Under the pieces are notes generated by a model that was not told the origin of the DNA, did not search any database, and was given only the letters and a program-made list of their open reading frames with translations. A stretch of 64,000 nt of DNA from Rhizobiaceae bacterium. GTDB taxonomy: Bacteria; Pseudomonadota; Alphaproteobacteria; Rhizobiales; Rhizobiaceae. The DNA is taken from the NCBI GenBank assembly GCA_965204295.1, contig OZ241973.1, positions 3,437,940 through 3,501,939 on the forward strand, in the 5' to 3' direction. Both the position numbers and the translations under genes were made by a program. Within the stretch, counting starts at the first letter, position 1. The number at the start of each line of letters is the position of its first letter. Shown piece by piece: positions 1,828 to 43,906 of the stretch.

Positions 1828-1904
<77 letters not shown>

Positions 1905-2597: not shown

Positions 2598-2690
2598 GCG
2601 TCAACCCACCCATGCGAATCTGATTCGCCGCGTATTTCAGCGAGTTGCGTCGAGATATTCAACCCCTGCTAAAGTAAGAACAGGGGAAAA

Positions 2691-3008: not shown

Positions 3009-3115
3009 GGACCTCTGCCTTACAATCAATAATTGAACAAACGATAGCGGTCGGGAGTTAACTAAAATGCGAACCCGCGGTCAAGGAGCATCGGGCTTTT
3101 GAAGACGATTCGCGT

Positions 3116-4087: not shown

Positions 4088-4099
4088 CGAAATCCGCCC

Positions 4100-5194: not shown

Positions 5195-5287
5195 TTACCG
5201 CCCCATCGGGTCGGGGGAAAATAGCCTTTTTCCGGCGACGCACAACCGGAATCGGGCAACCTCATCCAACCATGAGCGTTTTTTGGA

Positions 5288-5851: not shown

Positions 5852-6396
5852 GCGCCGCCATCTGCGTGAGCGCCAAACGAAACGCGACCGGCGAGAATTT
5901 CGCCGATATCGTTCCGGGACATCGCATCGTACAGACGAAACACCTGCTCCGCCAGCCCGTCGGCATGCGGCCAGTCCACATCGCCGGGCCGGATGTTTCG
6001 CGCCAGCGCTTCGGCGAGCGCCCGCAGATCTCCTTCATCCAGCGCCCGGCCATAGGACGAAGCCCGGCCATAGAACATTTTTGCAAGTTTCTTCATGCGT
6101 TTCGGTATGCCTATATCGCCGACCCCGAGTTCCCGCAACGAATGATCAATGTCCTTAAAGAACATGTCGGTGACGTCCCGCGCCAGTTCCGCGGCGCTGC
6201 CTGTCTCGTTTTTCAGCCGATGGAGAAAGAGAAACATGTGAAGCGAAAGCATTTCGTAGCGACCCAGCGGCGTATCCGGCACGTCCAGATCGGCGAAGTA
6301 TCGCGGTTGCCGCGCGGCTGCCACGATTTCGGCGTAAAGTGCATCGGCGATAGCCCTATTGGCCCGCTTCGCCGAGCCGAACAGTCGCTTGAACAT
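5848..6396 (-). CDS. Ubiquinol-cytochrome c chaperone family protein
   Basis: Family-like sequence (ALYAEIVAAARQPRYF...LGRYEMLSLHMFLFLHRL). Its stop overlaps the yceD start by 4 nt. Confidence 0.7.
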   Translation of the reverse strand: MFKRLFGSAKRANRAIADALYAEIVAAARQPRYFADLDVPDTPLGRYEMLSLHMFLFLHRLKNETGSAAELARDVTDMFFKDIDHSLRELGVGDIGIPKRMKKLAKMFYGRASSYGRALDEGDLRALAEALARNIRPGDVDWPHADGLAEQVFRLYDAMSRNDIGEILAGRVSFGAHADGGA

Positions 6397-6538
6397 CGGT
6401 TTCCGTCTCCCCTAACGGCGATTGGACGACCCGGTTCGCCGTAAGAACATCGAGGTTCGGGTTGCATCGGCGGTGAAGCTGGTTTACCGAGTTTTCCGCC
6501 GGTGCATGCGGCGGCCCTTTTGAACCTGTCTGAAGAAC

Positions 6539-7036
6539 ATGTTGGCAAATCGCAAGTCCGTATTCGATGTGGCCCGTTCAGCGCCGGTGGTTCTGGCGAT
6601 GATCGGCATTGCGTTGTCCGGTTGCAATGGCACGGAAATGCTGAATCCGACGACGACGCTGACCCAGGGCTACATCGTGGATCAGGAGGCCCTGGATCTG
6701 GTTCCGGTCGGATCGAGCCGCGAACAGGTGCTGCTGGCGCTTGGAACGCCGACGACGACGGCGACTTTTGACAATAAGGCATTTTACTACATCTCGCAAA
6801 GGCGGGTAAAAAGGGCCGCGTTCATGACGGCGGAAATCGTCGATCGGCGCATTTTCGCGGTTTATTTCGGTGAGGACGAGCGCGTTGCGAATATCGCTCA
6901 GTACGGCCTTCAGGATGGCAGAGTTTTCGATTTCATCTCGAAGACCACGCCGACCGGCGGCACGCGCGACAGTTTCATCGGACAGTTGCTGTCCGGTCTG
7001 AGCAGCGGCCAGGCGCCGACGTTGGGCCGACCCTGA
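6539..7036 (+). CDS. bamE: Outer membrane protein assembly factor BamE (SmpA/OmlA lipoprotein)
   Basis: Lipobox ALSGC after a signal peptide. SmpA/OmlA core (GYIVDQEALDLVPVGSSREQVLLALGTP). Confidence 0.75.
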   Translation: MLANRKSVFDVARSAPVVLAMIGIALSGCNGTEMLNPTTTLTQGYIVDQEALDLVPVGSSREQVLLALGTPTTTATFDNKAFYYISQRRVKRAAFMTAEIVDRRIFAVYFGEDERVANIAQYGLQDGRVFDFISKTTPTGGTRDSFIGQLLSGLSSGQAPTLGRP

Positions 7037-7061
7037 ACCCGCAGGCCCAAACCGTGTCGTG

Positions 7062-7098
7062 AAAAAACCCGCGGAGATCGCTCTTCGCGGGTTTTGTT
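7062..7098. terminator. Bidirectional rho-independent terminator between bamE and hppA
   Basis: AAAAAACCCGCG-(12 nt)-CGCGGGTTTTGTT is a GC stem flanked by an A-run on one side and a T-run on the other. It sits between two convergent genes. Confidence 0.55.
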
Positions 7099-7116
7099 CG
7101 AGCGAATCGGGCCGCG

Positions 7117-9255
7117 TCAGTGCGCCAGGACGGCCAGCAGCAGCAGCGCCACGATGTTGGTGATCTTGATCATCGGATTGACCGCCGGGCCGGCCGTGTC
7201 CTTGTAGGGGTCGCCCACCGTGTCGCCGGTGACCGACGCTTTGTGGGCTTCCGAACCCTTTTCGTGTCTTGCGCCGTCCTTGTCGATGAAGCCGTCTTCA
7301 AACGACTTCTTGGCGTTGTCCCAGGCGCCGCCGCCCGCCGTCATCGAAATGGCGACGAACAGACCCGTGACGATCACGCCGAGCAGCATCGCGCCGACGG
7401 CGGCAAGCGCGTCGTTCTTGTCCGCGATCGCGTAGATCAACCCGAAGACCACAATCGGCGAAAGCACCGGCAGCAGCGAAGGAACAATCATCTCCCTGAT
7501 CGCGGCGCGGGTCAGCATATCCACGGCGCGGCCATAATCGGGTTTTTCCTTGCCTTCCATGATGCCGGGTTTCTCGCGGAATTGCCTGCGTACTTCCTCA
7601 ACCACCGCGCCACCGGCGCGACCGACGGCGGTCATCGATATGCCGCCGAACAGGTAGGGCAACAGGCCGCCGAACAGCAGTCCGACGACCACATATGGAT
7701 TGGAAAGCGAGAAGTCGACCGATACGCCTTCAAAGAAGGATCCCGGCGCCGCGTTGGCCGCGAAGAATTTCAGGTCTTCGGTGTAGGCGGCGAACAGCAC
7801 CAGCGCGCCGAGGCCGGCCGATCCGATGGCATAACCCTTGGTGACGGCCTTCGTGGTGTTGCCGACCGCATCAAGCGCATCGGTTGACTTGCGGACCTCC
7901 GGATCAAGCCCCGCCATCTCGGCGATGCCGCCGGCGTTGTCCGTTACCGGGCCGAACGCATCGAGCGCGACGACCATGCCGGCCAGCGCCAGCATGGTGG
8001 TGACGGCAATCGCAATCCCGAACAATCCGGCCAGATTGAAGGTCGCGATGATGCCGGCGATGATCACGATTGCAGGCAATGCCGTGGCCTCAAGCGAAAC
8101 GGCCAGACCTTGAATGACGTTGGTGCCATGGCCGGTGACCGACGCCTGCGCGATGGAAACCACCGGGCGCTTGCCCGTGCCGGTGTAGTATTCCGTGATC
8201 CAGATAATCAGACCGGTGACCGCAAGGCCGATCAGTCCGCAATAGAACAAATAACGTCCGGTGAAGGAAGCGCCGTTCGATGCCGTGAAATCGGTTCCGG
8301 CGCCGAGCCAGCCCCACACGATCACGGCGAGCGCGACGGCCGACAGCGCCGCCGTCGCCCAAAAACCCTTGTAAAGGGCGCCCATGATCGAATTGTCGGA
8401 TCCGAGCTTGACGAAAAACGTGCCGATGATCGACGTGACCACGCACGATGCGCCGATGACCAGCGGAAACAGCATCAACATTTGCGCCGTAGCGCCATCG
8501 AAGAAGATCGACGCCAGCACCATCGTCGCGACGATCGTCACCGCATAGGTTTCGAACAGGTCCGCGGCCATTCCGGCGCAGTCGCCGACATTGTCGCCGA
8601 CATTGTCCGCAATGGTCGCCGGATTGCGTGGATCGTCTTCCGGAATGCCGGCTTCCACCTTGCCGACGAGATCGCCGCCGACGTCGGCGCCCTTGGTGAA
8701 GATACCGCCGCCAAGGCGGGCGAAAATCGAGATCAGCGACGCGCCGAAGCCAAGAGCCACCATGGCGTCGATGACGTTGCGGCTTTCCGGATCAAGGCTC
8801 ATCGGCCCGATCAGGATGCAGTAGTAGCCGGCGACGCCCAGCAGCGCCAGGCCGGCCACCAACAGTCCGGTGATCGCGCCTGACTTGAAGGCGATATCGA
8901 GACCGCCGGCAAGCGAATCGGACGCCGCCTGCGCGGTGCGGACATTGGCGCGCACGGAAATATGCATGCCGATGTACCCCGCCGCGCCGGACAGAACGGC
9001 GCCGATCAGAAAGCCGATCGCGGCGATACCGGACAACAGCCACCAGGCAATCAGGCACACCACGACGCCGACAATGGCGATCGTCGTATACTGACGGTTC
9101 AGATATGCCTGCGCACCCTCGCGGATATAGCCCGCGATTTCCTGCATTCGGGCGTTGCCCTGATCGGCCGCGAGAACCGACTGTGTCGCCCAGATGGCGT
9201 AAAGCACGGACAGCAAGCCGCAGGCGATGACGACAAAAAGCATGGTCATTGCCAT
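7117..9255 (-). CDS. hppA: Membrane-bound proton-translocating pyrophosphatase
   Basis: 712-aa polytopic protein with H+-PPase signatures ([47 protein letters not shown]). Confidence 0.95.
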
Positions 9256-9441
9256 ATTCCTTGGTTTGATTGATCCGGATGGTCCCCATGCCGGACAGGT
9301 CTGACATCTGCCGGATCACGCCGGGCAAAAAGGCGGCGTCACGGCCATCGCTGCGGCTTATGCGCATGCCACCCGCCAAGGTCAAGGCTTTGTTGCGAAT
9401 TGCAACGAATTGCCAGTCTCATTGGCGAATTCGGGCCGGCA

Positions 9442-10653
9442 TCAGGTGGAAATCGCCGATTTCGGGGTCCGGAACGACAGAATCGCCAATGCGGCCAGGC
9501 AGAGGAGCGTAACCGGAAACACGATCCAGTTGAGCATATCCCACCCCCAGGCGTTATAGACCTGACCGGACATCAGCGACGCGAAGGCGACCAGCCCGAA
9601 AAGCAGAAAGTCATGGAATCCCTGAACCTTGTTCTTTTCGGATGGACGATAGCATTCGGTAACGATCGCGGTTGAGCCGATGAATCCGAAATTCCAGCCG
9701 ATCCCGAGCAGGACAAGCGCGGTCCAGAACTGCCATAGAGCGATGCCCGACAACGCCACGATTGCACAGGCGATCAAAAGGAAAAGGCCGGTCGCGATGA
9801 TTTTCTCCTTGCCGAACCGCGCGATGAGGCCGCCGGTAAAGAAGCTCGGCGCAAACATCGCCATGACGTGCCAGGAAATACCGAGCGTCGCTTCATCCGG
9901 CGTAAAACCGCATCCGACCATGGCCAGAGGCGCACCGGTCATGACGAAAACCATCAGCGTGTATGAACCGACCGCGCAGATCAGCGCGGCGGCAAAACGC
10001 GGTCGGCGAATGATTTCGACAAGCCGCCGGGCGGGCTCTCCCGTCGCCGTATCGCGGGAACCCGATTCCCTGGGCATTCCGAGAAACGACAGGATCAACG
10101 CGCCGATGGCCGCCAATCCGATCACGGCCGCGAAGGAGCCGGCAAACATGATCGGCGCGAACAGTTCGCGTGTGAAGATTACCGTCTGCGGTCCGATGAT
10201 GGCCGCGAAGACGCCACCGCCGAGAACCCAGGAAATGGCCTTGGGTTTGAAGGAGACCGGCGCATTGTCGGCGGCCGCGAAGCGATATTGCTGGACGAAA
10301 GAGTTTCCGCTGCCGATGAACAACAATCCGAGGGCGAAAAGCCAGAAGCTGTGATTGAAAAGCGCGATGGTCGCCACCGCGCCGCCAAGCGCCGTCACGC
10401 CGGCGCCGGACACGAACCCATACCGCCTGCCGACCCATCTCATCAGAGCGGCGGCCGGCAATGCGCCGAGCGCCGTGCCGATATTGAAGCCGGTTACAGG
10501 CGCTGTCGCCAGCGATTTGTCGGCGCCGAGCAGATAAAATCCCGCCAATCCGCCCATTGCAATCGATATGGGCGCCGCCGATCCGACAATGGCCTGGCTT
10601 GCGGACAGGATTAACGCCGTCCGGCGGGCTTCACTCCCGGGAACGGCGCTCAC
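9442..10653 (-). CDS. MFS transporter
   Basis: 403 aa, about 12 predicted TM helices, MFS-like loop (GRRYG). Confidence 0.75.
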
Positions 10654-24987: not shown

Positions 24988-27234
24988 CTAGCCAAACCGG
25001 CCGGACCTTGGAAAGCCCTTCGGCGCCATGCGGCCGGCGCCGGCGCGCGCGCCCATCCATTCGGCGAGTTCCTTCGCCGGGCGGGTAAACGTCCGGTCGG
25101 CGGAATCCAGCCAGGCGAGTCCCTCGGCCAGCGTGAACGTTTTCACGTCTCTGACGCCGCCGTCCCTGTATTTTTGCAGCCGCACGCCCTTGCCGCGCGT
25201 CATCTGCGGAATGTCGGCCAGCGGGAAGATCAGCAGCTTCCGGTTCTCGCCGACGATCGCCAGGTGATCGCCGGCGACGGCGACGCAGTTCCTCGCTTCG
25301 TCGGGCGCCTTGACATTCATTACCTGCCTGCCCTTTCGCGTATTGGCGACGACGTCTTTTTCCGCGACGACAAACCCGTTGCCGGCATAGGAGACAACCA
25401 GAAGCTTTCGCTCCGGATCGTGCACGAAGGCGGTCACGATGTCCTGATCGTTGTCCATATCGACAATGATGCGCACGGGTTCGCCGTGGCCGCGCCCGCC
25501 CGGCAACCGGTCGGCGCCGATCGTGTAGACCTTGCCGCCGGTGGTGAAAATCAGCACCTTGTCGGTCGTCAGCGCATGGAAGGCGAGTTTCAACCTGTCG
25601 CCCTCCTTGAAGGACAGCGCCGCGAAGTCCGACAGGTGCCCCTTCATGGCGCGCAGCCAGCCCTTCTCGGAGACGACCACGGTAATCGGCTCCTTCTCGA
25701 TCATCGCCTGCTGGATGGCCTCCATGTCGTGATCGGGCGCTTCGCCGAAATCGGTGCGACGCGCGCCCTGCTCGATATCCCCGCCAAATTTCTTCTTCGC
25801 CTCGCCGATCTGGCGAGCGATCATTCGCCACTGCTTGTCGCCGGACGCGAGCAGCGCCTCGATCACTCTCTTTTCCTCGGTCAAGGCGTCGAATTCCTTG
25901 CGAATCCCGATCTCTTCCAGCTTGCGCAGGGCGCGCAGACGCATGTTGAGGATCGCTTCGGCCTGCACGTCGCTCAACCGGAAGCGGGCCATCATCACCT
26001 TTTTGGGCTCGTCCTCCTCGCGGACGATCCCGATCACCTCGTCGATATTCAGATAGGCGACGAGATATCCGCCGAGCACTTCGAGACGGCGCCCGATCCG
26101 GCCCAGCCGGTGGCGCGACCGGCGCAACAACACCTCCTTGCGGTGATCGAGCCATTCGCGCAGCACGCCGCGCAGCGACAGGACGCCGGGAACCCTGCCG
26201 CGCGACAGCACGTTCATGTTGAGCGGGATCCGGCTTTCCAGATCGGTGAGTTTGAACAGCGATTCCATCAACACGCCGGGATCGACCGAGCGGCTTTTCG
26301 GCGTCAGCACGACGCGGATGTCTTCGGCGCTTTCGTCGCGGACGTCTTCGAGGAGCGGCAGTTTCCTGGCGATCAGCAATTCGGCGATCTTCTCGATCAG
26401 CCGGGATTTCTGCACCTGATAGGGGATTTCGGTGACCGCGATCACCCAGGCGCCCCTGCCCCGTTCCTCCTTCTCCCACCGGGCGCGTACGCGAAAACCG
26501 CCGCGTCCGGTCGCATAGGCCTCGACGATCGAGGCGCGGTCATCGACAATCGTTCCGCCGGTCGGAAAATCCGGACCCGGAACCATGCCGACAAGTTTTT
26601 CGACCGTGGCGTTCGGATGTTCGATCAGATGCAACGCGGCGTCGCACAATTCGGCGGCGTTGTGCGGGGGAATCGAGGTCGCCATGCCGACCGCGATGCC
26701 GGAGGCGCCGTTGGCGAGCAGATTCGGAAACGCGCCGGGAAGCACGGCCGGCTCCTCGTCCTCCTCGTTGTAAGTCGGACGAAAATCGACCGCGTCCTCG
26801 TCGATGCCCTCGAGCAGTTCGACCGCGACATCGGTCATGCGCGCTTCGGTGTAGCGGTAGGCGGCGGCGTTGTCTCCGTCGATATTGCCGAAATTGCCCT
26901 GCCCGTCGACCAGCGGGTAACGCATGGAGAAATCCTGCGCCAGCCGCACCAGCGCGTCATAGACCGCCTGGTCGCCGTGCGGATGGAATTTGCCGATCAC
27001 GTCGCCGACGATGCGGGCGCACTTCTTGTACGCCTCGTCCGGGTCGAGGCGCAGAATGCGCATGGCATGCAGAATGCGCCGGTGGACGGGCTTCAATCCG
27101 TCGCGCACGTCCGGCAGCGCGCGGTGCATGATGGTCGAGAGCGCATAGGCGAGATAGCGCTCTTCAAGAGCCGATTTCAGATCGACCGGTTCGATATCGT
27201 CTCCGTCGCCCGGCGGAACAAGGCTTTTCCCCAT
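24988..27234 (-). CDS. parC: DNA topoisomerase IV subunit A
   Basis: 748 aa of the GyrA/ParC family ([16 protein letters not shown], active-site AAAYRYTE). The size and C-terminal domain fit ParC rather than GyrA. Confidence 0.85.
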
Positions 27235-27396
27235 GTTCGCGGGTTAACCGGACAAGTGATTCGTGGCAAGTGGGAGCGTTCGTGGCGGCGGCGACCCTCT
27301 CGCCTTCCCCGGAGAAGCGAAGCGGTTTGACAAATATCAATGTAAAATGCCGTGGCCGGTTCATGCTGCCACGGTCGGTTTATCCCATGGAGGTTG

Positions 27397-29434: not shown

Positions 29435-30595
29435 ATGGAATTGATCAGCACGACGACCGCGCTCCGGGACGCGGTATCCGAACTTTCCAGGTCCGAATTC
29501 ATTACCGTCGACACCGAGTTCATCCGTGAAACGACATTCTGGCCGGAGTTGTGCCTGATCCAGATGGCGGCGCCGGGAACCGAAGCGATGGTCGACGCGC
29601 TGGCGCCGGGCCTCGACCTGGAACCGTTTTTCGGCCTGATGGGCGACGAGGCGGTGGTCAAGGTGTTTCACGCCGCGCGCCAGGACATCGAGATCGTTTT
29701 TCATCGCGGCGGCCTGATTCCGCATCCGGTGTTCGATACGCAGGTCGCGGCCATGGTTTGCGGATTCGGCGACAGCGTCTCCTACGATCAGCTTGTCCAG
29801 AGAATTACCGGCAATTCGATTGACAAGTCATCCCGCTTCACCGATTGGCGCCGCCGCCCGTTGTCGCAGAAACAACTGGCCTATGCGCTCGCCGACGTGA
29901 CATATCTCATCGACGTCTACCGCCGCCTCGAAGCCGAATTGCGGCGCGAGAACCGCGCGCATTGGCTGGAGGACGAGATGGAGGCGCTTACGGCGCGCGA
30001 AACCTACGACATCCGTCCGGAAGAAGCCTGGAACCGGCTCAGGAAACGATTGAGAAAGCCGGCGGAACTGGCCGTCATGCGATCCGTCGCCGCCTGGCGC
30101 GAGCGGGAGGCGCGGTCCCGGAACGTACCGCGCGGGCGCGTGTTGAAGGACGACGCGATTTACGAGATCGCGCAACAACAACCGACGGACCCGGAAAAAC
30201 TGAGCCGGCTGAGAACCATACCGCGTGGCCGGAAACGTTCGGGCGACGTCGCCGGCCTGCTGAAGGCGGTCAACGACGCGCTCGCGCTGCCGCGCGACCG
30301 GATGCCGAGCCCGCTCAAGCCGAAACGCCCGCCAAACGGCGCCGCCGCGGCGGCGGAACTCCTGAAAGTGTTATTGCGGATGACGTCGGAGGATTCGGGC
30401 GTAGCGGCCAGGGTTCTCGCCTCCGGCGACGATATCGACAAACTGGCCGCCGAGGGCGAAAAGGCCGACATTCCGGCGCTGAACGGCTGGCGTCGCGAAG
30501 TGTTCGGCGATCCCGCGCTAAAACTGATCCGTGGCGAGACCGCGCTTCGCTACAGGAACGGCAAGGTGGCGACGGAGGAATGCCGGCCGGGATGA
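29435..30595 (+). CDS. rnd: Ribonuclease D
   Basis: DEDD 3'-5' exonuclease motifs (ITVDTEF, FHAARQDIE, YALADVTYL) followed by an HRDC region. Confidence 0.9.
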   Translation: MELISTTTALRDAVSELSRSEFITVDTEFIRETTFWPELCLIQMAAPGTEAMVDALAPGLDLEPFFGLMGDEAVVKVFHAARQDIEIVFHRGGLIPHPVFDTQVAAMVCGFGDSVSYDQLVQRITGNSIDKSSRFTDWRRRPLSQKQLAYALADVTYLIDVYRRLEAELRRENRAHWLEDEMEALTARETYDIRPEEAWNRLRKRLRKPAELAVMRSVAAWREREARSRNVPRGRVLKDDAIYEIAQQQPTDPEKLSRLRTIPRGRKRSGDVAGLLKAVNDALALPRDRMPSPLKPKRPPNGAAAAAELLKVLLRMTSEDSGVAARVLASGDDIDKLAAEGEKADIPALNGWRREVFGDPALKLIRGETALRYRNGKVATEECRPG

Positions 30596-30629
30596 CCCCC
30601 CGCCGGCCCGGTGCGCCATGCGTATCGCC

Positions 30630-31601
30630 TCAGGCGGCTTTGCGCCGGGGCATGTAGGAGGGCGGTGCGATGCCGAGCGCCTCGCGAAGGTCGGGCGGAA
30701 CGAGCCGGTGCGCCGATATGCGCGCAAACGGCATTTCCGCGATCAGACGGTCGGCCCCGGCGATTTCGAGATATTCGTCGTAATTGTCGAAGCCGGACCG
30801 GCCGACATAATCGATAAAGCTCTCCGCGGGAACGCCGTTGGCGACGACGCACTCGTGGTTCTCAAGCTCCACATGCCACCAGACGAATTTCGTCGGCATG
30901 TCCGAAAGCGGCAGGAAGCGGATTGGTGTTCCGTCCTCCGCCAGCGTGCCGGCGTTGATCAGCATATCGCCGAACAGCAGGGCGTGATCGGCGGTCACGG
31001 TCAGCGGTCTGTTCGGCAGGTCCGGGCCGAGGGCGCCGGCGTCGATGCGCACGGGCTTGCGTCCGAGTTCGACGCCGCGCGGGTTGGCGACGGTCTGCCG
31101 CGCCACCCAGATCGCCGGCGTCGACCTGCCGTCATGGGTCACGACCCGGTCGCCGGGTTTCAGGGTTTCGATGGCCTTTTCGCCGTCCGGCGTGGCGATC
31201 CTCGTTCCGGTCGCGAAGCAGTTGAAGACCTGCGCCCCGTTTCCCGTGTAGACCGACGTGAAGCCCCCTGCCGTCAGGGGCGCGAGGTTTGCGTCCGCCA
31301 GGTTGTAGGGGATGTAATATTGTGCTTCTCCGCCGCCGAACTGCCTGCCGCCGCCGCCGGACTGCCTGCCGAAAATGGCGTAGGTCTCGCCTTCGAATCC
31401 GATCGTGTACCCCGTGAAGACGTTCTCGCGCGCCAAGAACGAGTCCGCGCCGACATCCAGGAGGCCGTCATCTCCGGAATTGACCATGCCCGATGATTGT
31501 TGCCGGATGGAGGCGGAAGTCCACGAGATGCTCCCGCCCGGCTGGTTGACGACATCCATGCCGGGTAGGCTTATAAAAATGTAATGAGAAAATGTAGCCA
31601 C
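30630..31601 (-). CDS. Hint (Hedgehog/intein-like, bacterial intein-like) domain protein, paralog 1
   Basis: A 127-aa divergent N-module, then N|CFATGT...TADH...VANGVPAESF, which matches the Cys1 and TxxH blocks of Hint/BIL domains. GTG start with an AAGGAGA SD. Confidence 0.8.
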   Translation of the reverse strand: MATFSHYIFISLPGMDVVNQPGGSISWTSASIRQQSSGMVNSGDDGLLDVGADSFLARENVFTGYTIGFEGETYAIFGRQSGGGGRQFGGGEAQYYIPYNLADANLAPLTAGGFTSVYTGNGAQVFNCFATGTRIATPDGEKAIETLKPGDRVVTHDGRSTPAIWVARQTVANPRGVELGRKPVRIDAGALGPDLPNRPLTVTADHALLFGDMLINAGTLAEDGTPIRFLPLSDMPTKFVWWHVELENHECVVANGVPAESFIDYVGRSGFDNYDEYLEIAGADRLIAEMPFARISAHRLVPPDLREALGIAPPSYMPRRKAA

Positions 31602-31739
31602 GGGCCGTCTCCTTTCAGTCCCGGGGAGCGACCCGGCGGAAACCCGCGAGGCAAACGCCCCGGTCAGATGCCGGTTGCCCGACAGTCCGTCTTCACACCC
31701 ATGCCGCCGATTTGGGAAACGGGCGCGTCATACTTCAAT

Positions 31740-31775
31740 GGCGACGCACCGCTTGATGACGACGCCCCGCTTGAT
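31740..31775. repeat. Two-unit 18-bp tandem repeat in the 5' leader of Hint paralog 1
   Basis: ggcgacgcaccgcttgat / gacgacgccccgcttgat. Same family as the long arrays upstream of paralogs 2 and 3. Confidence 0.8.
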
Positions 31776-31779
31776 GGGC

Positions 31780-31807
31780 ATTGTACGGCCCCGACACGGA
31801 CCGTCAA
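31780..31807 (-). promoter_or_regulatory. Predicted sigma70-type promoter of Hint paralog 1
   Basis: Gene-sense strand reads TTGACG-16 nt-TACAAT. The same architecture is conserved upstream of all paralogs. The repeat begins 4-5 nt after the -10 box. Confidence 0.5.
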
Positions 31808-31872
31808 GGGGCCCTTCCGCACCCGGACGCCGGCGCGAGAAAAGAGCGCGCGCCCGCCGCGTCACGCCATGC

Positions 31873-31980
31873 GCCGGTCTTCAAACGCCTTTCAAACGCC
31901 CTTCGAAACGGTTTTGAGGGGCCTTCGGGCGAAAACGCCGGACAGCGCCCTTGAGGGAGCGCCGCCGCCGTCTCCTTGCG
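31873..31980. repeat. Conserved ~110-nt 3' element of the Hint unit (copy downstream of paralog 2)
   Basis: Near-identical to 33483..33592 and similar to 41443..41554 (tcttcaaacgcctttcaaacgcccttcgaaacgg...gaggggccttcgggcgaaaacgcc...). Confidence 0.8.
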
Positions 31981-32946
31981 TCAGGCGGCGGTTTTCCGGG
32001 GGGCGGCGATAAGAGGCCGCCGGGCGATGGCCGGCAATCCCCGCAACCCGTTCGCCGGCAACAGACGCCGCGCCGATATGCGCGCAAACGGCATTTCCTT
32101 AATCAGACGGTCCGCGCCCACAAGGTCGAGATACTCGTCGTAATTGTCGAAGCCGGACCGGCCGACATAATCGATAAAGCTTTCCGCGGGAACGCCGCCA
32201 TTGGCCAGAACGACCTCGTGGTTCTCAAGCTCCACATGCCACCAGGTGAATTTCGTCGGCATGTCCTCAAGCGGCAGGAAGCGGACCGGGGTTCCGTCCT
32301 CCGCCAGCGTGCCGGCGTTGACCAGCATGTCGCCGAACAGCAGGGCGTGGTCGGCGGTCACGGTCAGCGGTCTGTTCGGCAGGTTCGGGCCGAGCGCGCC
32401 GGCGTCGATGCGCACGGGCTTTCGTCCGAGTTCGACGCCGCGCGGGTTGGCGACGGTCTGCCTCGCCACCCAGATCGCCGGCGTCGACCTGCCGTCATGG
32501 GTCACGACCCGGTCGCCGGGTTGCAGCGTTTCGATGGCCTTTTCGCCGTCAGGCGTCAGAATCGTCGTTCCGGTGGCGAAGCAGTTGGAGACATCGGCTC
32601 CGGTGGGGATGTAACCCGTCGAACTGCCCCTAACCAAGGGCGCGAGGTCATGCTGCGCCGCGTTGTAGGGGATGAAATAAGTGTCCGGTTCGACGGTGCC
32701 CGTACTACCGAAAATGGCGTAGGTCCGGCCTTCGTATTCGACCACGTACCCCGTGTAGACGATGGGTGGGCTTACTCTTCCTAACTGGTCGACGTTTCGA
32801 TCCAGAAGCCCATCGGGTCCGGAATCGACACTGGATGGTAAATTAACGGCGGCGCCATTACTCCACGAGATTGAACCGTCCGGCCCGCCGGGGGTTACGT
32901 GCACGTTAGTTAACCGGATGACATGAGTGAATGATACATCAGCCAC
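31981..32946 (-). CDS. Hint/BIL domain protein, paralog 2
   Basis: The Hint module is over 90 percent identical by eye to paralogs 1 and 3, while the N-module is divergent. The start is set to the GTG (ADVSFTHVI) that aligns with the paralog starts. An in-frame upstream ATG at 33066 is an alternative. Confidence 0.7.
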   Translation of the reverse strand: MADVSFTHVIRLTNVHVTPGGPDGSISWSNGAAVNLPSSVDSGPDGLLDRNVDQLGRVSPPIVYTGYVVEYEGRTYAIFGSTGTVEPDTYFIPYNAAQHDLAPLVRGSSTGYIPTGADVSNCFATGTTILTPDGEKAIETLQPGDRVVTHDGRSTPAIWVARQTVANPRGVELGRKPVRIDAGALGPNLPNRPLTVTADHALLFGDMLVNAGTLAEDGTPVRFLPLEDMPTKFTWWHVELENHEVVLANGGVPAESFIDYVGRSGFDNYDEYLDLVGADRLIKEMPFARISARRLLPANGLRGLPAIARRPLIAAPRKTAA

Positions 32947-33074
32947 GAATAATCTCAACGGGGAACGCACCGGCGGAAAACCGCGGGCAGACGTTCCGGT
33001 CAGATGCCGGTTGCCCGACGGCCTGTCCTCACACCCATGCCACCGATAAGGAAACGGGCGCGTCATACTTCATT

Positions 33075-33378
33075 GGCGACGCACCGCTTGGGCGACGCAC
33101 CGCTTGGGCGACGCACCGCTTGGGCGACGCACCGCTTGGGCGACGCACCGCTTGGGCGACGCACCGCTTGGGCGACGCACCGCTTGGGCGACGCACCGCT
33201 TGGGCGACGCACCGCTTGGGCGACGCACCGCTTGGGCGACGCACCGCTTGGGCGACGCACCGCTTGGGCGACGCACCGCTTGGGCGACGCACCGCTTGGG
33301 CGACGCACCGCTTGGGCGACGCACCGCTTGGGCGACGCACCGCTTGGGCGACGCACCGCTTGGGCGACGCACCGCTTG
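33075..33378. repeat. 19 perfect tandem copies of a 16-bp unit (GGCGACGCACCGCTTG) in the 5' leader of Hint paralog 2
   Basis: Counted directly: 304 bp = 19 x 16 with no visible substitutions. All six frames are open across it. Confidence 0.95.
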
Positions 33379-33383
33379 ATTCC

Positions 33384-33411
33384 ATTATATGGCCCCGACA
33401 CGGACGGTCAA
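33384..33411 (-). promoter_or_regulatory. Predicted sigma70-type promoter of Hint paralog 2
   Basis: Gene-sense strand reads TTGACC-16 nt-TATAAT. The repeat array begins 5 nt downstream of the -10 box. Confidence 0.55.
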
Positions 33412-33482
33412 GAGGCTTTTCCGCACCCGTCGGGACACGGCCCGGCGCGCCTTGGTCACGGATTTCGACTCCGTGATTTGAC

Positions 33483-33592
33483 GCCGGTCTTAAAGCGCCT
33501 TGCAAACGCCCTTCGAAACGCGGTTTTGAGGGGCCTTCGGGCGAAAACGCCGGACAGCGCCCTTGAGGGAGCGCCGCCGCCGTCTCCTTGCG
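33483..33592. repeat. Conserved ~110-nt 3' element of the Hint unit (copy downstream of paralog 3)
   Basis: Aligns with 31873..31980 and 41443..41554. Confidence 0.8.
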
Positions 33593-34570
33593 TCAGGCGG
33601 CGGTTTTCCGGGGGGCGGCGATAAGAGGCCGCCGGGCGATGGCCGGCAATCCCCGCAACCCGTTCGCCGGCAACAGACGCCGCGCCGATATGCGCGCAAA
33701 CGGCATTTCCTTAATCAGACGGTCGGCCCCCGCAAGGTCGAGATATTCGTCGTAATTGTCGAAACCGGACCGGCCGACATAATCGATAAAACTCTCCGCA
33801 GGAACGCCGCCATTGGCCAGAACGACCTCGTGGTTCTCAAGCTCCACATGCCACCAGATGAATTTCGTCGGCATGTCCGAAAGCGGCAGGAAGCGGATCG
33901 GGGTTCCGTCCTCCGCCAGCGTGCCGGCGTTGACCAGCATGTCGCCGAACAGCAGGGCGTGATCGCCCGTCACGGTCAGCGGTCTGTTCGGCAGGTCCGG
34001 GCCGAGGGCGCCGGCGTCGATGCGCACCGGTTTGCGGCCGAGTTCGACGCCGCGCGGGTTGGCGACGGTCTGCCGCGCCACCCAGATCACCGGCGTCGAC
34101 CTGCCGTCATGGGTCATGACCCGGTCGCCGGGTTGCAGCGTCTCGATGGCCCGCTCGCCGTCCGGCGTCAGAATCGTCGTTCCGGTGGCGAAGCAGTTGA
34201 AGACCTGGGCATTGCTGGGCTGGAAACCCGTCGAGACGCCGCCCATGAACGCCAGGGTGCCGAGGTTTTGTCCCTGCTCGGGGTCATAGGGGATGTAATA
34301 TCGCGCTCCTCCGCCGCTGAGCGGCCTGCCGAAAATGGCGTAGGTCTCGCCTTCGTATTCGACCACGTACCCCGTGTAGGTGGTGGCATCGTTTAGGAAC
34401 CAGTCGGTTCCGGCATCCAGGATGTCATCGTCTCCGGTATTGACGCTGAATCGTGGGTCCACATTGTCAGTGGCAGTAAAAACAGTCCACGAGATCGACC
34501 CGTCCGGCCCGGAGGGGAGGGGCGTCGGCGAATTAATCTCAATGTAGTTGGGGAACTCTATAACAGCCAT
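33593..34570 (-). CDS. Hint/BIL domain protein, paralog 3
   Basis: The ATG at 34570 (MAVIEFPNY) is preceded by AAGGAAA. Same N|CFATGT ... TGDH ... LANGGVPAESF architecture. Confidence 0.8.
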   Translation of the reverse strand: MAVIEFPNYIEINSPTPLPSGPDGSISWTVFTATDNVDPRFSVNTGDDDILDAGTDWFLNDATTYTGYVVEYEGETYAIFGRPLSGGGARYYIPYDPEQGQNLGTLAFMGGVSTGFQPSNAQVFNCFATGTTILTPDGERAIETLQPGDRVMTHDGRSTPVIWVARQTVANPRGVELGRKPVRIDAGALGPDLPNRPLTVTGDHALLFGDMLVNAGTLAEDGTPIRFLPLSDMPTKFIWWHVELENHEVVLANGGVPAESFIDYVGRSGFDNYDEYLDLAGADRLIKEMPFARISARRLLPANGLRGLPAIARRPLIAAPRKTAA

Positions 34571-34705
34571 GGGTAGTTTCCTTTCAATCCGGGGAACGAA
34601 CCGGCGGAAACCCGCGGGCAAACGTTCCATTAAGATGCCGGTTGCCCGACAATCCGTCTTCACACCCCTGCCACCGATCGGGACACGGGCGCGTCATACT
34701 TCAAT

Positions 34706-34894
34706 GGCGACGCCCCGCTTGAGGCGACGCACCGCTTTGAGGCGACGCACCGCTTTGAGGCGACGCACCGCTTTGAGGCGACGCACCGCTTTGAGGCGAC
34801 GCACCGCTTTGAGGCGACGCACCGCTTGGGCGACGCACCGCTTTGAGGCGACGCACCGCTTGGGCGACGCACCGCTTGGGCGACGCACCGCTTG
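34706..34894. repeat. 11-unit tandem repeat (mixed 16/17/18-bp variants of GGCGACGCACCGCTT(T)G(A)) in the 5' leader of Hint paralog 3
   Basis: Units counted by hand: one 17-mer, five 18-mers, then an alternation of 16- and 18-mers. Confidence 0.9.
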
Positions 34895-34899
34895 ACCTC

Positions 34900-34927
34900 A
34901 CTATATGGGCCCGACCCAAACCGTCAA
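34900..34927 (-). promoter_or_regulatory. Predicted sigma70-type promoter of Hint paralog 3
   Basis: Gene-sense strand reads TTGACG-16 nt-TATAGT. The repeat starts 5 nt downstream. Confidence 0.5.
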
Positions 34928-35024
34928 GGGGCCTTTTCGCAGCCGGACGCCGGCAAGGCGGGCCGCCCGTCGCGCATCTTGCGCGCCCGCAACCGCCGGC
35001 ATGTCGCGGATATGAGTCCCGGCC

Positions 35025-36539
35025 CTATTGCGGCGCGACCGCGAGCCGCAACGGCCTTTCGATCATTCTTGCAAGCTGCTCCAGCCGCCACGACGGTCTG
35101 TCGCCGTAAAGGCCGGCGAGATCGGCCGGCAGCCGCAGTTCCAGACCGCCGTCGCCAACTGCAACCCATTTCAGTCGCGGGATGACCCCGGGCATGGCCG
35201 CGGACAGCAGATATCCGACCCGCATCAAACCCGCCGCGAGTTTCGCGCGCTCGAACGATCTCGCTCCGGCGACTTCAACGAGCGCGGGCGAGACCTTCGC
35301 CGCCAGACCTTCGTGCCGGAACGCGGTGGCGAGGGCGATAAACGCCCGCCCGGGATGATCGATTCCGACAAACGAGGTGTGCGAAATCACATTGAGCGAT
35401 TGAGCGCCGCGATATTCCGGATGCGCCCGCCAGCCGATGTCGGCCAACATGCATGAGGCGCGCCGGCACCTCGCCTCGTCGGCGGTCTCGTCCACGCCGA
35501 ATTTCCCGAACGAACGCCCGGTCCAGTCAGCCATCTCCCGGGCGTGCGCGATGGACCGGGAGCGAAGCAGCGCCAGTTCCCCGGCGGCGGCGGCAAGCGG
35601 GTCCAGATCGCGCTCGACATCGTTCAGAAGCGAATACAGATAACCTTCCCGCACCCCGAGAGCCGACACTTCGATATGGGCCGGCCGCATGATCCTGATG
35701 ATTTCCTCCAGCACGATCGCGCCATAGGGCAACAGCGACCGGCGGTTCTTCGATACGCTGCCGATGCCCTTGACCGATTCGATTTCTCCCGACGACACCC
35801 GGCGCAGAAAACCGGCGATCCGAGCGGGCCTCATCGCGTAATGGTGTATGACGCCGAGAGGATAGCCGTCCGAGTTCATGTGAAGACGGGCGAGATTTCT
35901 CCATGTTCCGCCCACCGCGTAGAAGACCCGCCCCCTGCCCTTCGCGAGCCAGGACGCGCGCTTGAGTTCGGATGCCACGATCCCGCGAACCCTGCCAAGA
36001 TCCTCCCCCGCCATGTCGCGCAGGCGCAGGCCGCCGAGCGGCAGGGTGATGCCGTCGCCGATCCGCGTTCCCGATACGTCGAACAATTCCAGGCTGCCGC
36101 CGCCGAGATCGCCGCCGATCCCATCCGGCGACATGAAGCCGGAAATGACGCCCAATGCGGAATAATATGCTTCCCGGCGCCCCGACAGCACGTCGATTTC
36201 GGCGCCGAGGATTTTCTCGGCCCGCTCTATGAATTCCTGTCCGTTGACCGCCTCACGCGCGGCGGCGGTGGCGATCACATGCAGGGAGGCCGCGCCGGTT
36301 TGCGCGACCAGCGCCCGAAAACGCCTGAATTCCTCCATGGCCGCGTCGATCGCCGCCGGATCGAGCCGTCCGGTCGAATGAACGCCCCGGCCCAGACCGG
36401 CCAGCATTTTTTCATTGAAAAGAACCGTCGGAGACCTGGTCACGCCTTCATAGACGACAAGGCGAATCGAATTGGAACCGACATCGATGATTGCGACCGG
36501 TTCGCGGCCGGGCAGCCGACCCTGCGAAAAATCGTTCAT
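35025..36539 (-). CDS. ppx: Exopolyphosphatase (Ppx/GppA family)
   Basis: N-terminal ASKHA motif ([15 protein letters not shown]), 504 aa, overlaps the ppk1 stop by 4 nt. Confidence 0.9.
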
Positions 36540-41554: not shown

Positions 41555-41752
41555 TCAGGCGGCGGTTTTCCGGGGGGCGGCGATAAGAGGCCGCCGCGCG
41601 ATGGCCGGCAATCCCCGCAACCCGTTTCGCGGCAACAGACGCCGCGCCGATATGCGCGCAAACGGCATTTCCGCGATCAGACGATCGGCCCCGGCGATTT
41701 CGAGATAGTCGTCGTAATTGTCGAAACCGGACCGGCCGATATATAACCCCAA
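41555..41752 (-). pseudogene. Remnant of a Hint-domain gene: only the last ~65 codons remain
   Basis: Translation GRSGFDNYDDYLEIAGADRLIAEMPFARISARRLLP...APRKTAA equals the C-terminus of paralogs 2 and 3. Upstream it abruptly joins promoter-like sequence. Confidence 0.8.
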
Positions 41753-41765
41753 ACCAAACCGTCAA
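41738..41765 (-). promoter_or_regulatory. Hint-unit promoter copy fused to the remnant
   Basis: Gene-sense strand has TTGACG and, about 14-16 nt later, a TATATA/TATATC box. It aligns with the paralog-3 promoter (ccgtcaagggg...). Confidence 0.35.
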
Positions 41766-41866
41766 GGGGCGTTTTCGGCGCGGCGGCGGGTGCCCGACTA
41801 TGGTGTTCCGCCACGCGCATGCAAGCGATCCGAATCAGGAAAAACAAATTGTATCCATCGGGGATT

Positions 41867-41942
41867 CTGGCAGGGGCAGCAGGACTTGAACCCGCGACCT
41901 ACGGTTTTGGAGACCGTCGCTCTACCGACTGAGCTATACCCC
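41867..41942 (-). tRNA. tRNA-Trp (anticodon CCA)
   Basis: 76-nt cloverleaf read on the minus strand. Acceptor AGGGGTA/TGCCCCT, anticodon stem ACGGT/ACCGT with loop CTCCAAA, T-arm GCGGG-TTCAAGT-CCTGC, encoded CCA. Confidence 0.9.
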
Positions 41943-42043
41943 TGTGGCCGGGCGCTACATGCATCAGCAATCCGGTAAATTCAAGCCCTGACTTCCCGGT
42001 CCGCACGCCCGCCGCCAATCGCCCGGCGCCTGATGACCTTCGA

Positions 42044-42730: not shown

Positions 42731-43906
<1,176 letters not shown>

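Follow-up and report, generated by a model that had tools for sequence, protein, structure and literature searches.

Predicted self-processing Hint-domain cassettes with reassorting N-terminal modules in a tandem array between rnd and ppx

Described systems and the array

B-type BIL domains were reportedly described by Amitai et al. in 2003 and Dassa et al. in 2004, and by the two definitions we take Pfam Hint_2 (PF13403) to be the same class. BIL domains occupy variable regions of non-conserved proteins, and their products are chiefly those of N- and C-cleavage (PMC7765530, PMC7664689, PMC5874633). The array proteins described here resemble the B type in several respects: the Hint_2 match, Cys1 and TxxH blocks and a C-terminal motif unlike that of inteins; the location of the domain within a hypervariable, non-conserved alphaproteobacterial protein; and the expected chemistry, which would be N- and/or C-terminal cleavage, not splicing (PMC7765530, PMC5874633). 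Beyond the B-type pattern, the array newly provides population-level evidence that modules reassort precisely at the junction, one promoter per cassette and a leader repeat that is hypermutable.

Hedgehog/Hog proteins share with the array proteins the order of N-terminal cargo, Cys-starting Hint domain and short conserved C-terminal region, and only the first acyl-shift step would be used in both (PMC7664689, PMC2362128). In the array proteins, however, the Hedgehog-type Pfam Hint family (PF01079) is below threshold, no signal peptide is evident and the tail is unrelated in sequence, and an adduct is known for the Hedgehog side only. The best structural match is the Tetrahymena BUBL BIL2 domain (6y75, 6tmm), which likewise lies between independently folded domains, not inside a host protein, and serves to activate the upstream domain (PMC9200820). 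It differs in being eukaryotic, in its ubiquitin-like upstream domain with an RGG end, in its His-Asn-type C-terminal chemistry and in a sequence identity of 16-18%. PT-HINT toxins and the Neisseria MafB/TpsA proteins with BIL domains also combine Hint with an adjacent variable module, multiple cassettes and recombination (PMC3113570, PMC4524018), but the array's module is N-terminal and comes with no immunity gene, toxin family match or trafficking domain.

The full architecture is widespread: it occurs, frequently as tandem arrays, in Rhodobacteraceae (Mameliella alba, Antarctobacter heliothermus, Roseovarius) as well as on 211 alphaproteobacterial plasmids. Shared features are the three-part, ~300-aa layout, the tail motif …E[ST]FIDY..R..FDNY.EYL.L.G..R.I.EM...RIS..R.LP and the head-to-tail arrangement of genes, 3 to 6 or more per array, with N-modules that differ between neighbours. 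Overall identity to the array proteins is just 37-42%, the organism studied here belongs to Hyphomicrobiales and not Rhodobacterales, and the Rhodobacteraceae arrays have neither a per-gene consensus promoter nor tandem leader repeats. Thus, promoter and repeat are dispensable for the basic function of the family. Databases annotate the architecture only as "Hint domain-containing protein", and our literature search found no functional study of a family so named, in line with the original prediction, which had considered the function uncharacterised.

Organization of the cassettes

In the 64,000-nt stretch of DNA that was analysed (the window), three intact minus-strand open reading frames lie between the convergent genes rnd and ppx, located and oriented as predicted (Table 1). 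Family alignments favour the starts of g1, g2 and g3 given there over longer upstream ORFs; g2 lacks a clear Shine-Dalgarno sequence. The stop codon of g1 is 34 nt from that of rnd. Each cassette consists of a consensus promoter of sigma-70 type, a slippage-prone leader tandem repeat where the transcript would begin, a conserved basal leader of ~130 nt, the gene and a conserved terminator-like hairpin; the hairpin of cassette 3 was not called by a simple terminator scan. The original prediction of a duplicated ~1.6 kb cassette holds for the duplication and its parts but not for a uniform size: the period is 1360 nt from g1 to g2 and 1612 nt from g2 to g3, and leader repeat number is the main source of the difference.

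Table 1 Features of the array and its surroundings in the window
Feature	Position	Strand	Description
rnd	29435-30595	+	convergent with ppx
g1	30630-31601	-	323-aa precursor, GTG start
g1 tail	30630-30809	-	second tail type (…PPSYMPRRKAA)
g1 Hint_2	30810-31220	-	
g1 Cys1 codon	31218-31220	-	
g1 N-module	31221-31601	-	
Leader repeat, cassette 1	31738-31776	-	about 2 (2.2) units, one degenerate
Promoter-like site, cassette 1	31780-31807	-	TTGACG-16-TACAAT
g2	31981-32946	-	321-aa precursor, GTG start, backed by homologues opening MADVSFTH
g2 tail	31981-32169	-	
g2 Hint_2	32170-32583	-	
g2 Cys1 codon	32581-32583	-	
g2 N-module	32584-32946	-	
Leader tandem repeat, cassette 2	33075-33378	-	19 perfect 16-nt units
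Promoter-like site, cassette 2	33384-33411	-	TTGACC-16-TATAAT, 11/12 matches
3' element, cassette 3	33480-33592	-	long GC-rich hairpin, GUUUUC, then conserved spacer
g3	33593-34570	-	325-aa precursor, ATG start (ORF, Pfam Hint_2 4.4e-32, AlphaFold, Foldseek)
g3 conserved tail	33593-33781	-	aa 264-325
g3 Hint_2	33782-34195	-	aa 126-263
g3 Cys1 codon	34193-34195	-	
g3 N-module	34196-34570	-	aa 1-125
Basal leader, cassette 3	34571-34705	-	~135 nt; homologous segments 32947-33074 and 31602-31737
Leader tandem repeat, cassette 3	34706-34893	-	about 11 (10.8) units, core AAGCGGTGCGTCGCC
Promoter-like site, cassette 3	34900-34927	-	TTGACG-16-TATAGT
ppx	35025-36539	-	convergent with rnd
Remnant cassette	41555-41790	-	family promoter (CCCTTGACGG…TATATAT) abutting the final 63 codons of a tail and the 3' element

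A sigma-70-like promoter stands ahead of each gene, and the region contains 7 such sites versus 0.6 expected; the promoter sequence of cassette 3 also stands ahead of the cassette nearest ppx in strains L004, L005 and L007. In simple-sequence contingency loci of one kind, repeats separate the promoter from the start codon, as do the 7-bp repeats in front of the Haemophilus influenzae hmw adhesin genes. The array resembles them in having a perfect tandem repeat between promoter and coding region, in copy numbers that vary among closely related strains and in the variable multigene family attached, but its unit is 16-18 nt compared with 1-7 nt, and its host is an environmental bacterium. Across the family, this leader repeat ranges from 0 to 43 copies and the same cassette varies between strains; the counts come from long-read metagenome assemblies, in which some error is possible. 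The repeat of cassette 3, which mixes 18-nt and 16-nt periods and begins a few nucleotides past the -10 box, has 1, 8 and 6 copies in other strains, and that of cassette 2 has 15 in L004 and 6 in L006.

The basal leader of cassette 3 contains three predicted hairpins, one of them GCAA-capped, followed by AAAGGAAA as the Shine-Dalgarno sequence. Only 1 of 33 pairs in the basal leader is compensatory, and leader folding energy was not better than that of shuffled controls (z-scores not significant). A copy of the 3' element with 97% identity follows g2 (31870-31980). The remnant cassette, which follows tRNA-Trp (41868-41943) and tuf at a short distance downstream, encodes a partial tail with 88-90% identity to aa 260-326 (tblastn).

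Hint domain, flanking modules and their reassortment

The precursors comprise a variable, beta-rich N-module of ~125 aa, a ~138-aa Hint domain that opens with Cys and a conserved, structured tail of ~60 aa. The assignment to Hint/BIL was borne out by strong Pfam Hint_2 matches in all three proteins (1.2e-31, 2.5e-31 and, for g3, 4.4e-32; 110-112 bits, with a cut-off of 28.4), spanning aa ~122/126/128 to ~259-264. All of the predicted motifs, N|CFATGT, VT(A/G)DH and (G)VPAESF, were recovered, and in a profile search of the PDB the junction aligns with G|CFAKGT of the VMA1 intein. An AlphaFold model of g3 has a pLDDT of 86.6, with a low-confidence linker (residues 121-123) immediately N-terminal to Cys126. 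The best Foldseek matches (TM 0.57-0.70 on target) are Tetrahymena BIL2, MchDnaB-1, 2lwy (the BIL domain of C. thermocellum) and gp41-1.

We scored residue conservation in 80 diverse relatives, in which mean column identity is 35% overall. Cys1, Thr/Ser201, His241, Glu243, His247 and Glu259 are each present in 80/80 and His204 in 79/80, so that the residues of the first splicing step (Cys1, Thr/Ser-x-x-His) are complete. Position 253 is Asn in 69 relatives, Glu in 9, Ala in 1 and His in 1; position 255 is Gly in 77/80 and in 70/80 is immediately next to position 253. There is no Cys, Ser or Thr nucleophile thereafter, and the C-terminal His-Asn plus nucleophile of inteins is absent, which rules out intein identity. 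Thus, by their residue pattern, the array proteins are predicted BIL-type (Pfam Hint_2) self-processing domains.

N-modules of g1-g3 are 45-49% identical, whereas the final ~200 aa are almost identical, as originally described. The three genes and the majority of array members keep the N-module islands GSISW, TGY..E.EG.TYAIF and IPY. Searched with an N-module profile, 1.84 billion representative proteins yielded 39 matches: Hint_2 proteins of similar length, short ORFs that are unverified and a few repetitive giants that are spurious; no other recognisable family was among them, and the N-modules match no toxin, defence or phage family. The tail has pLDDT values of 92-94 at residues 271-300 and 80 at 261-270. 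Arg267 and Pro301 are invariant in the 80 relatives, and Phe270, Asp271, Asn272, Arg293 and Arg298 occur in 77-79. No similarity of the tail to known domains was detectable.

The N/C mosaic of the original prediction was recovered by both substitution rates and breakpoint analysis. Among the three paralogs, dS is 0.41-0.59 and dN/dS 0.8-1.3 in the N-module, compared with 0.15-0.19 and 0.2-0.3 in the Hint module; dN/dS of the tail is 0.09-0.49. Purifying selection acts on both the Hint module and the tail. An N-module dN/dS near 1 at a dS around 0.6 would also be given by relaxed constraint. In each of the three pairs, the maximum chi-square breakpoint lies at alignment nt 393-396, 3-4 codons upstream of Cys1 (codon at nt 405), and 0/500 permutations reached the observed value. 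Across the family, identical N-modules are joined to Hint modules of 75% identity, Hint modules 97-99% identical bear N-modules only 26-40% identical, and the two identities are uncorrelated (Spearman 0.09, 1540 pairs). An orthologous cassette in another strain has kept its N-module (dS 0.01) with a different tail (dS 0.50). N-modules and Hint/tail modules thus reassort freely across the family, and gene conversion of the Hint part, as first proposed, captures a real mosaic but understates this exchange.

The array genes are members of a large family that is present in multiple copies in an uncultured Hyphomicrobiales species. Co-occurring strains have 1, 2 or 3 cassettes in the ppx-rnd interval, a comparison called for in the original prediction, with flanks 97-99% identical; elsewhere, arrays run to 8 or more genes. 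The ~300-320 aa architecture is shared by the homologues, which excludes fragments of a larger protein, and truncated or frameshifted copies occur. No signal peptide was evident by eye in the N-termini of the three proteins, as noted before, and six different genomic contexts revealed neither a signal peptide nor a lipobox, and neither a secretion-system neighbour nor any other conserved partner gene. Close relative genera have no array near parC.

Proposed function and alternatives

Our preferred explanation, held with slightly better than even confidence, is that the array is a lineage-specific, recombination-shuffled tandem set of autonomous self-processing cassettes with the N-module as payload and repeat-tuned expression. 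The Hint domain would convert the N125-C126 peptide bond to a thioester, and the N-module would then be freed by hydrolysis or passed to a nucleophile; most likely, each precursor frees its variable N-module, or hands it on, at the thioester formed at this N|C junction. The role of the conserved tail may be similar to that of the Hedgehog-type adduct-recognition region. The N-module would be the functional payload, its diversity upheld by recombination and relaxed or diversifying selection. By analogy with contingency loci, we infer that repeat number affects cassette expression, and shifts in it would alter the expression of single cassettes and create population heterogeneity.

How the thioester is resolved separates this reading from one we consider unlikely, in which the tail recruits another molecule (a protein lysine, a cell-envelope component or a lipid) whose amine or hydroxyl resolves the thioester and leaves the N-module covalently on a target, like cholesterol on Hedgehog or the ubiquitin-like domains of the Tetrahymena BUBL locus. 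The layout does parallel Hedge-Hint-SRR/ARR (PMC2362128), the structured tail with its invariant or near-invariant Arg267, Asp271, Asn272, Glu288, Arg293 and Arg298 is binding-site-like, and the best structural match belongs to the BUBL BIL family, reported to supply activated ubiquitin-like protein without energy consumption (PMC9200820). The tail is nonetheless unlike any known domain, PF01079 stays below threshold and the present analysis identified no acceptor. Quite improbable, in our view, is that cassettes grow and shrink by unequal recombination with no host benefit, the N-modules drifting and the repeat a by-product of slippage. An N-module dN/dS of about 1, the broken copies and promoter-tail deletion remnant, the unrelated contexts lacking a partner gene, the leader structure lacking thermodynamic or covariation support and the absence near parC in close relative genera all fit such churn; it accounts poorly for purifying selection on Hint and tail, catalytic residues strictly conserved across distant taxa, the intactness of the three genes in the window and of most members of the arrays, N-module islands included, the near-consensus promoter retained by each cassette and the persistence of the family in many alphaproteobacterial genera and plasmids.

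Polymorphic toxins or effectors offer a precedent, since such systems use Hint domains to free toxin modules and secreted Neisseria proteins have BIL domains in their variable regions (PMC3113570, PMC4524018, PMC7765530), and the modular shuffling and multiple cassettes of the family are reminiscent of them. We give very little credence to a variable module freed in the manner of PT-HINT or MafB-type proteins, however: PT-HINT (PF07591) reaches only 12-13 bits where the cut-off is 27.7, the variable module lies at the N- rather than the C-terminus and matches no toxin family, intergenic DNA holds only promoter, leader and terminator with no immunity gene, and neither a trafficking domain nor a secretion-system neighbour was found. 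Some Hint-like domains have lost activity, and the Hint domain could serve as a structural or binding scaffold in a protein that acts uncleaved. This, too, seems highly unlikely, as Cys1, Thr/Ser-x-x-His and further His and Glu residues persist almost without exception in relatives so divergent overall, the pattern expected of an active site.

Array organisation and the N/C mosaic

Three intact Hint genes, here g1, g2 and g3 (323, 321 and 325 aa), lie head-to-tail on the minus strand between convergent rnd and ppx, as the original prediction had it. Its assignment to the Hint/bacterial intein-like (BIL) class was borne out for all three proteins by Pfam Hint_2 (PF13403), which matches them at 1e-31 to 4e-32 with 110–112 bits, against a curated cut-off of 28.4 bits. 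The match spans ~138 residues and starts at the Cys of N|CFATGT. In the same Pfam profile scan the Hom_end_hint model stayed below its cut-off on g1, g2 and g3, and profiles from NCBIfam, PADLOC and PHROGs returned intein block A and otherwise nothing. For the rnd and ppx flanks, Pfam content was read from these genes in other strains. Overall protein identity among g1–g3 is 69–71%, with 45–49% in the N-terminal ~125 aa (the N-module) and near identity in the remainder, i.e., the Hint module and a ~60-aa tail.

Coordinates of the features discussed, in the window unless another locus is named
Feature	Position	Strand	Remark
g1	30630-31601	-	intact ORF, head-to-tail with g2 and g3; leader repeat of ~2 units
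g2	31981-32946	-	intact ORF; leader repeat of 19 perfect 16-nt units; GTG start at 32946
g3	33593-34570	-	intact ORF; leader repeat of 11 units, 18 or 16 nt
rnd	29435-30595	+	array flank; convergent with ppx
ppx	35025-36539	-	array flank; convergent with rnd
Duplication in g1 N-module	31330-31371		tandem duplication of 21 nt, in frame; two copies at 95% identity
Extra promoter-like site	32931-32958		TTGAGA-16-TATCAT; overlaps g2 start codon
Relic cassette	41555-41790	-	beside tRNA-Trp and tuf
tRNA-Trp	41868-41943	-	
tuf	42731-43906	-	
hsp20/parC	27234-27352		hsp20 and parC adjacent
Repeat tract of L012 (same species)	9136-9866		ENA ERZ25068762 ctg152766; 43 perfect 17-nt units
L002 (Thiohalocapsa MAG)	3250-4266, 4352-5233		sole gammaproteobacterial member found
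Region beyond ppk in L005-L007 (same species)	~600-7500		strain-variable gene content

The proposed mosaic of the two halves was upheld by both substitution rates and a breakpoint scan. In Nei-Gojobori comparisons of g1, g2 and g3, dS is 0.41–0.59 in the N-module (dN/dS 0.8–1.3) and 0.15–0.19 in the Hint module (dN/dS 0.2–0.3). The tail is under purifying selection, with a dS of 0.085 and a dN/dS of 0.09 between g2 and g3. A maximum chi-square scan placed the breakpoint at alignment nt 393–396 in all three pairs, 3–4 codons ahead of the Cys1 codon (alignment nt 405), and none of 500 permutations matched the observed maximum. Because dS changes ~3-fold across the junction, unequal constraint at the protein level is insufficient on its own, and the N-module and Hint module must have had different histories. 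The observation behind the original prediction is confirmed, and its interpretation is supported, gene conversion of the Hint part being an understatement of the reshuffling seen.

Throughout the family, N-modules occur in changing combinations with Hint/tail modules. N-module identity is uncorrelated with Hint identity (Spearman 0.09, 1540 pairs); 13 pairs combine N-module identity of at least 90% with Hint identity of at most 80%, and 14 pairs show the opposite. In DNA comparisons, dS between g2 and the corresponding gene of L004, a locus of another strain, is 0.010 in the N-module, 0.18 in the Hint module and 0.50 in the tail; between g1 and a copy from a different locus it is 0.011 in the N-module and 0.25 in the Hint module. 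The median pairwise N-module identity within one species is 41%. An N-module profile run against 1.84 billion representative proteins gave 39 matches, all of them Hint_2 proteins of similar length, short unverified ORFs or, in a few cases, spurious giant proteins rich in repeats; no further family could be recognised. The 21-nt duplication in the g1 N-module extends a Gly-rich loop (…GGGGRQFGGGE…) and is an example of slippage within the variable module.

Cassette anatomy and variation among strains

Upstream of each gene, on the minus strand, is a near-consensus sigma-70-type promoter (TTGACG/C, 16-nt spacer, TATAGT/TATAAT/TACAAT), and the region holds seven promoter-like sites where 0.6 are expected. 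A tandem repeat with the core AAGCGGTGCGTCGCC and a 1–3-nt spacer begins a few nucleotides past the -10 box. The basal leader (~130 nt) is conserved and has a Shine-Dalgarno sequence at its end, g2 being without a clear one, and a conserved hairpin with GUUUUC lies 3' of g2 and g3. The claim that the whole unit is duplicated as a ~1.6 kb cassette stands for the duplicated unit and roughly for its size, but the period is not uniform: start-to-start distances are 1360 nt from g1 to g2 and 1612 nt from g2 to g3, mainly because the repeat number differs. The g2 gene lacks the AAGGAG-type Shine-Dalgarno sequence of g1 and g3, and its translation may be poor even though its leader repeat is the longest of the three.

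Within the repeat, the 12-mer GCGGUGCGUCGC can pair with itself only via G-U, i.e., on the sense RNA, and adjacent units are predicted to fold as 12-bp hairpins. Folding energies of the leaders, computed on single sequences, were no better than those of shuffled controls (z-scores -0.4 to -1.5, not significant). A conserved leader RNA structure was considered and dropped, as its 33 predicted pairs contained one compensatory change only and covariation was too sparse to judge. A switch depending on odd or even repeat number was likewise set aside: in silico folding of synthetic leaders with 0–12 units gave Shine-Dalgarno accessibilities of 0.49 vs 0.53 and 0.54 vs 0.66, a slight effect. An Rfam scan of 30400–35200 at E-values up to 10 yielded chance-level matches only, none of them on leaders or repeats, and two adjacent repeat units had no match in JGI metagenome contigs.

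A relic cassette elsewhere in the window consists of the family promoter (CCCTTGACGG…TATATAT) joined directly to the last 63 tail codons and the 3' element. Its tail is 88–90% identical to those of g2 and g3, and the relic looks like a deletion product from which the leader, N-module and Hint domain have gone.

At least 19 contigs in ENA, JGI, Logan and NCBI encode a ParC protein 99–100% identical to that of the window, followed by proteins at 85–87% (one from a "Rhizobiaceae bacterium" MAG) and then at about 80% (Mesorhizobium), a pattern that identifies the organism as an uncultured Hyphomicrobiales genus sampled as many strains. The g3 protein itself is listed for an NCBI contig of 3.56 Mb. 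In the relatives with 85–87% ParC identity synteny differs and parC has no Hint_2 gene closer than 10 kb, and a scan of GTDB genomes with g3 gave three distant loci only, the window's own species being absent among the matches. The protein collection contains more than 300 proteins of this family, many per genome, and another locus of one strain carries at least eight copies in a row. In that collection, g3 and the 504-aa Ppx share one "90% identity" cluster, most likely a clustering artefact.

Four contigs of a single metagenome (ERZ25068762) encode an identical Ppx and have flanks 97–99% identical to the window. Comparison of the rnd-ppx interval across these strains, as had been suggested, revealed cassette numbers from 1 to 3: three in L004 (one frameshifted), two in L006 and one each in L005 and L007. 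In L007 the sole gene is chimeric, with the promoter of g3, the body of g2 and the 3' end of g1. Leader repeats vary as well, with 11 units in the window, 1 in L004, 8 in L005 and 6 in L007 for the ppx-proximal cassette, and 19 in the window, 15 in L004 and 6 in L006 for the second; the period is 16, 17 or 18 nt. The longest tract listed, that of L012 (units of CAAGCGGTGCGTCGCCA) at a different locus in a further strain, begins 5 nt past the TATAAT box of a consensus promoter and lies ahead of a Hint_2 gene; a gene caller had annotated this repeat region as a spurious 357-aa ORF.

Gene content also differs outside the interval. In L004, L005 and L006, hsp20 and parC are separated by an ORF of 109 aa and a Type ISP restriction-modification gene of up to 1068 aa (N6_Mtase and Type_ISP_C). 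This defence island varies among strains and lies a few kb away from the Hint array. Beyond ppk, the gene content of L005–L007 (SpoU methylase, BglII-type restriction-modification pair, ABC-F protein, YHS protein) differs from that of the window and L004, which have zf-CHCC and FAD-binding genes on that side. Upstream of ppk, a 256-aa Hint_2 gene was called on the opposite strand in L005, and L006 and L007 have Hint fragments at the DNA level. Since gene content varies upstream of ppk too, ppk-ppx is bordered by variable DNA on both sides.

Predicted fold and relation to known Hint systems

An AlphaFold model of g3 made with 80 diverse relatives as input reached a pLDDT of 86.6; an input of 56 close paralogues gave 54 and was set aside. 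In the model, residues 1–120 form a beta-rich N-module, a low-confidence linker (121–123) lies just ahead of Cys126, and the Hint domain follows with the expected horseshoe-like fold. The predicted tail is structured (pLDDT 92–94 over residues 271–300), and the last ~17 residues are disordered and positively charged. Foldseek matched the model in the PDB to BIL domains and mini-inteins (E 6e-5 to 1e-3, probability 1.00), namely Tetrahymena BIL2, the MchDnaB-1 and gp41-1 inteins and a C. thermocellum BIL domain (TM 0.57–0.70 on the target), and in BFVD to Hint-domain proteins only. Searches of the PDB and BFVD with the uncropped whole model found no credible structural relative of the N-module; its likeness to lipocalins and PH domains (E > 0.1, probability < 0.5) was not counted as evidence.

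In the 80-sequence alignment, the block A nucleophile Cys126 is invariant, as are Thr/Ser201 of block B (80/80), His241, Glu243, His247 and Glu259, and block B His204 is present in 79. In the family profile, the VMA1 intein G|CFAKGT aligns to the N|C junction. The C-terminal motif reads …H-E-V-V-L-A-N-G(G)-V-P-A-E-S-F, with Ala at position 252 in 79/80, Asn (69/80) or Glu (9/80) at 253, Gly next and no nucleophile after it. In the tail, Arg267, Phe270, Asp271, Asn272, Glu288, Arg293, Arg298 and Pro301 are invariant or nearly so. The precursor closes on a conserved …PR(K/R)xAA, which we considered as a candidate C-terminal secretion signal or degron.

The profile match, the modelled Hint fold, Cys1 and Thr-x-x-His together place the g1–g3 family in the HINT superfamily. 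Canonical inteins have a penultimate His, a terminal Asn and Cys, Ser or Thr at +1, whereas this family has Ala-Asn-Gly; canonical inteins also interrupt a conserved host with intein-less homologues, whereas the Hint domain here sits in a variable, non-conserved protein and no homologue with N-module and tail but without the Hint domain was found (short N-module-only ORFs among the matches being left aside). The family instead shares its Hint_2 score, variable host and non-intein C-terminal motif with Hint_2, which we take to be the B-type BIL domain. BIL domains are described as retaining the N-terminal chemistry alongside an atypical C-terminal motif, as occurring in variable, non-conserved hosts and as yielding chiefly cleavage products (PMC7765530, PMC7664689, PMC5874633). 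With Cys1 and TxxH, the catalytic residues for the N-S acyl shift, retained and an Ala-Asn-Gly junction lacking a nucleophile, the family bears the described BIL signature rather than that of an intein, and BIL-type autocatalytic cleavage at its N- and/or C-terminus would be expected. A large RTX-type repeat exoprotein of Ruegeria pomeroyi, a type I secretion target-repeat protein, showed no peptides across its predicted intein-like region (PMC2953401); given the …HN at its end, this region looks to us like a different BIL type.

Possible function and occurrence elsewhere

We lean, by a little more than even chances, towards a joint reading in which the Hint domain would make a thioester at Asn125-Cys126, the N-module, a diversified payload, would then be released, and leader repeat length would modulate expression of the cassette. 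As a rival or a refinement, the conserved tail might recruit a nucleophile, as Hedgehog or BUBL proteins do. By analogy this is conceivable but rather unlikely: the domain order is that of Hedgehog-type Hog proteins (cargo, Hint, short recognition region), following the Hint plus ARR/SRR logic laid out by Bürglin 2008 (PMC2362128), and the tail is conserved and structured, but the Hedgehog Hint profile PF01079 scores g1–g3 at 15–18 bits, below its cut-off of 29.7. Neutral churning of a repeat family appears slightly less probable still. We give very little credence to a polymorphic toxin, which would share the Hint domain: PT-HINT toxins have a variable toxin C-terminal and an adjacent immunity gene, whereas here the variable part is N-terminal, the intergenic DNA holds promoter, leader and hairpin only, and PF07591 gives 12–13 bits against a cut-off of 27.7. 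A non-catalytic scaffold, a Hint fold kept for its structure beside a conserved Cys126 and block B, seems just as improbable.

More speculatively, and in our estimate doubtful, the arrays would be a new type of programmed variation system, in which Hedgehog-like self-processing precursors have their N-modules covalently displayed or released and reshuffled exactly at the cleavage junction, and cassettes are tuned by repeat length. The 16–18-nt leader repeat (0–43 copies) would then expand or contract and turn its cassette up or down. Contingency loci likewise have a perfect tract in the promoter, leader or ORF, here 19 and 11 units just past the -10 box, with a length polymorphic among close strains, here between flanks 97–99% identical. 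If the repeat tunes expression, contingency-locus logic would extend to 16–18-nt units and to environmental Hyphomicrobiales. If the programmed-variation view is true, BIL domains, whose biological role has to our knowledge been open since 2003, would gain a defined one, that of generating heterogeneity within populations of free-living Alphaproteobacteria.

BIL/Hint_2 domains abound in Alphaproteobacteria, and among marine Rhodobacteraceae the fast growers are enriched in PF13403 (PMC12487129). The protein family and its annotation are known but functionally unstudied; the literature search met a single direct mention of the "Hint domain-containing protein", as one of unknown function (PMC11999647), in line with the original prediction that the N-module plus Hint architecture is uncharacterised. 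What is new is that the breakpoint falls at the predicted scissile junction, that modules are shuffled at the population level, that cassette number varies and that a hypermutable 16–18-nt leader repeat stands behind a per-cassette promoter. The locus thereby offers a concrete hypothesis, with the breakpoint at the predicted scissile bond, a hypervariable cargo, a conserved processing module and tail, and cassette number and repeat length differing among strains of one sample. Since the precursors are short (~320 aa) and the cultivable Mameliella alba and Antarctobacter heliothermus have similar arrays, self-cleavage, N-module fate and the role of the tail are directly testable.

In M. alba, six or more genes stand head-to-tail, with unlike N-modules on the same Hint and tail parts, A. 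heliothermus has five between aconitase and ccm genes, and a Roseovarius MAG and a Thiohalocapsa MAG have three and one, respectively. Arrays of the M. alba and A. heliothermus type are without per-gene consensus promoters and leader repeats. Neighbouring genes elsewhere are unrelated housekeeping genes, and no conserved neighbour, secretion system or immunity-like gene recurs in six genomic contexts. More than 1300 proteins match an M. alba member, those named by source being mostly "Hint domain-containing protein". Homologues of the Hint-plus-tail part occur on 211 alphaproteobacterial plasmids, and none was found in the phage records searched. The Thiohalocapsa member lies directly downstream of an ORF that, by eye, resembles an IS630-type transposase, a hint that single cassettes may move by horizontal transfer.
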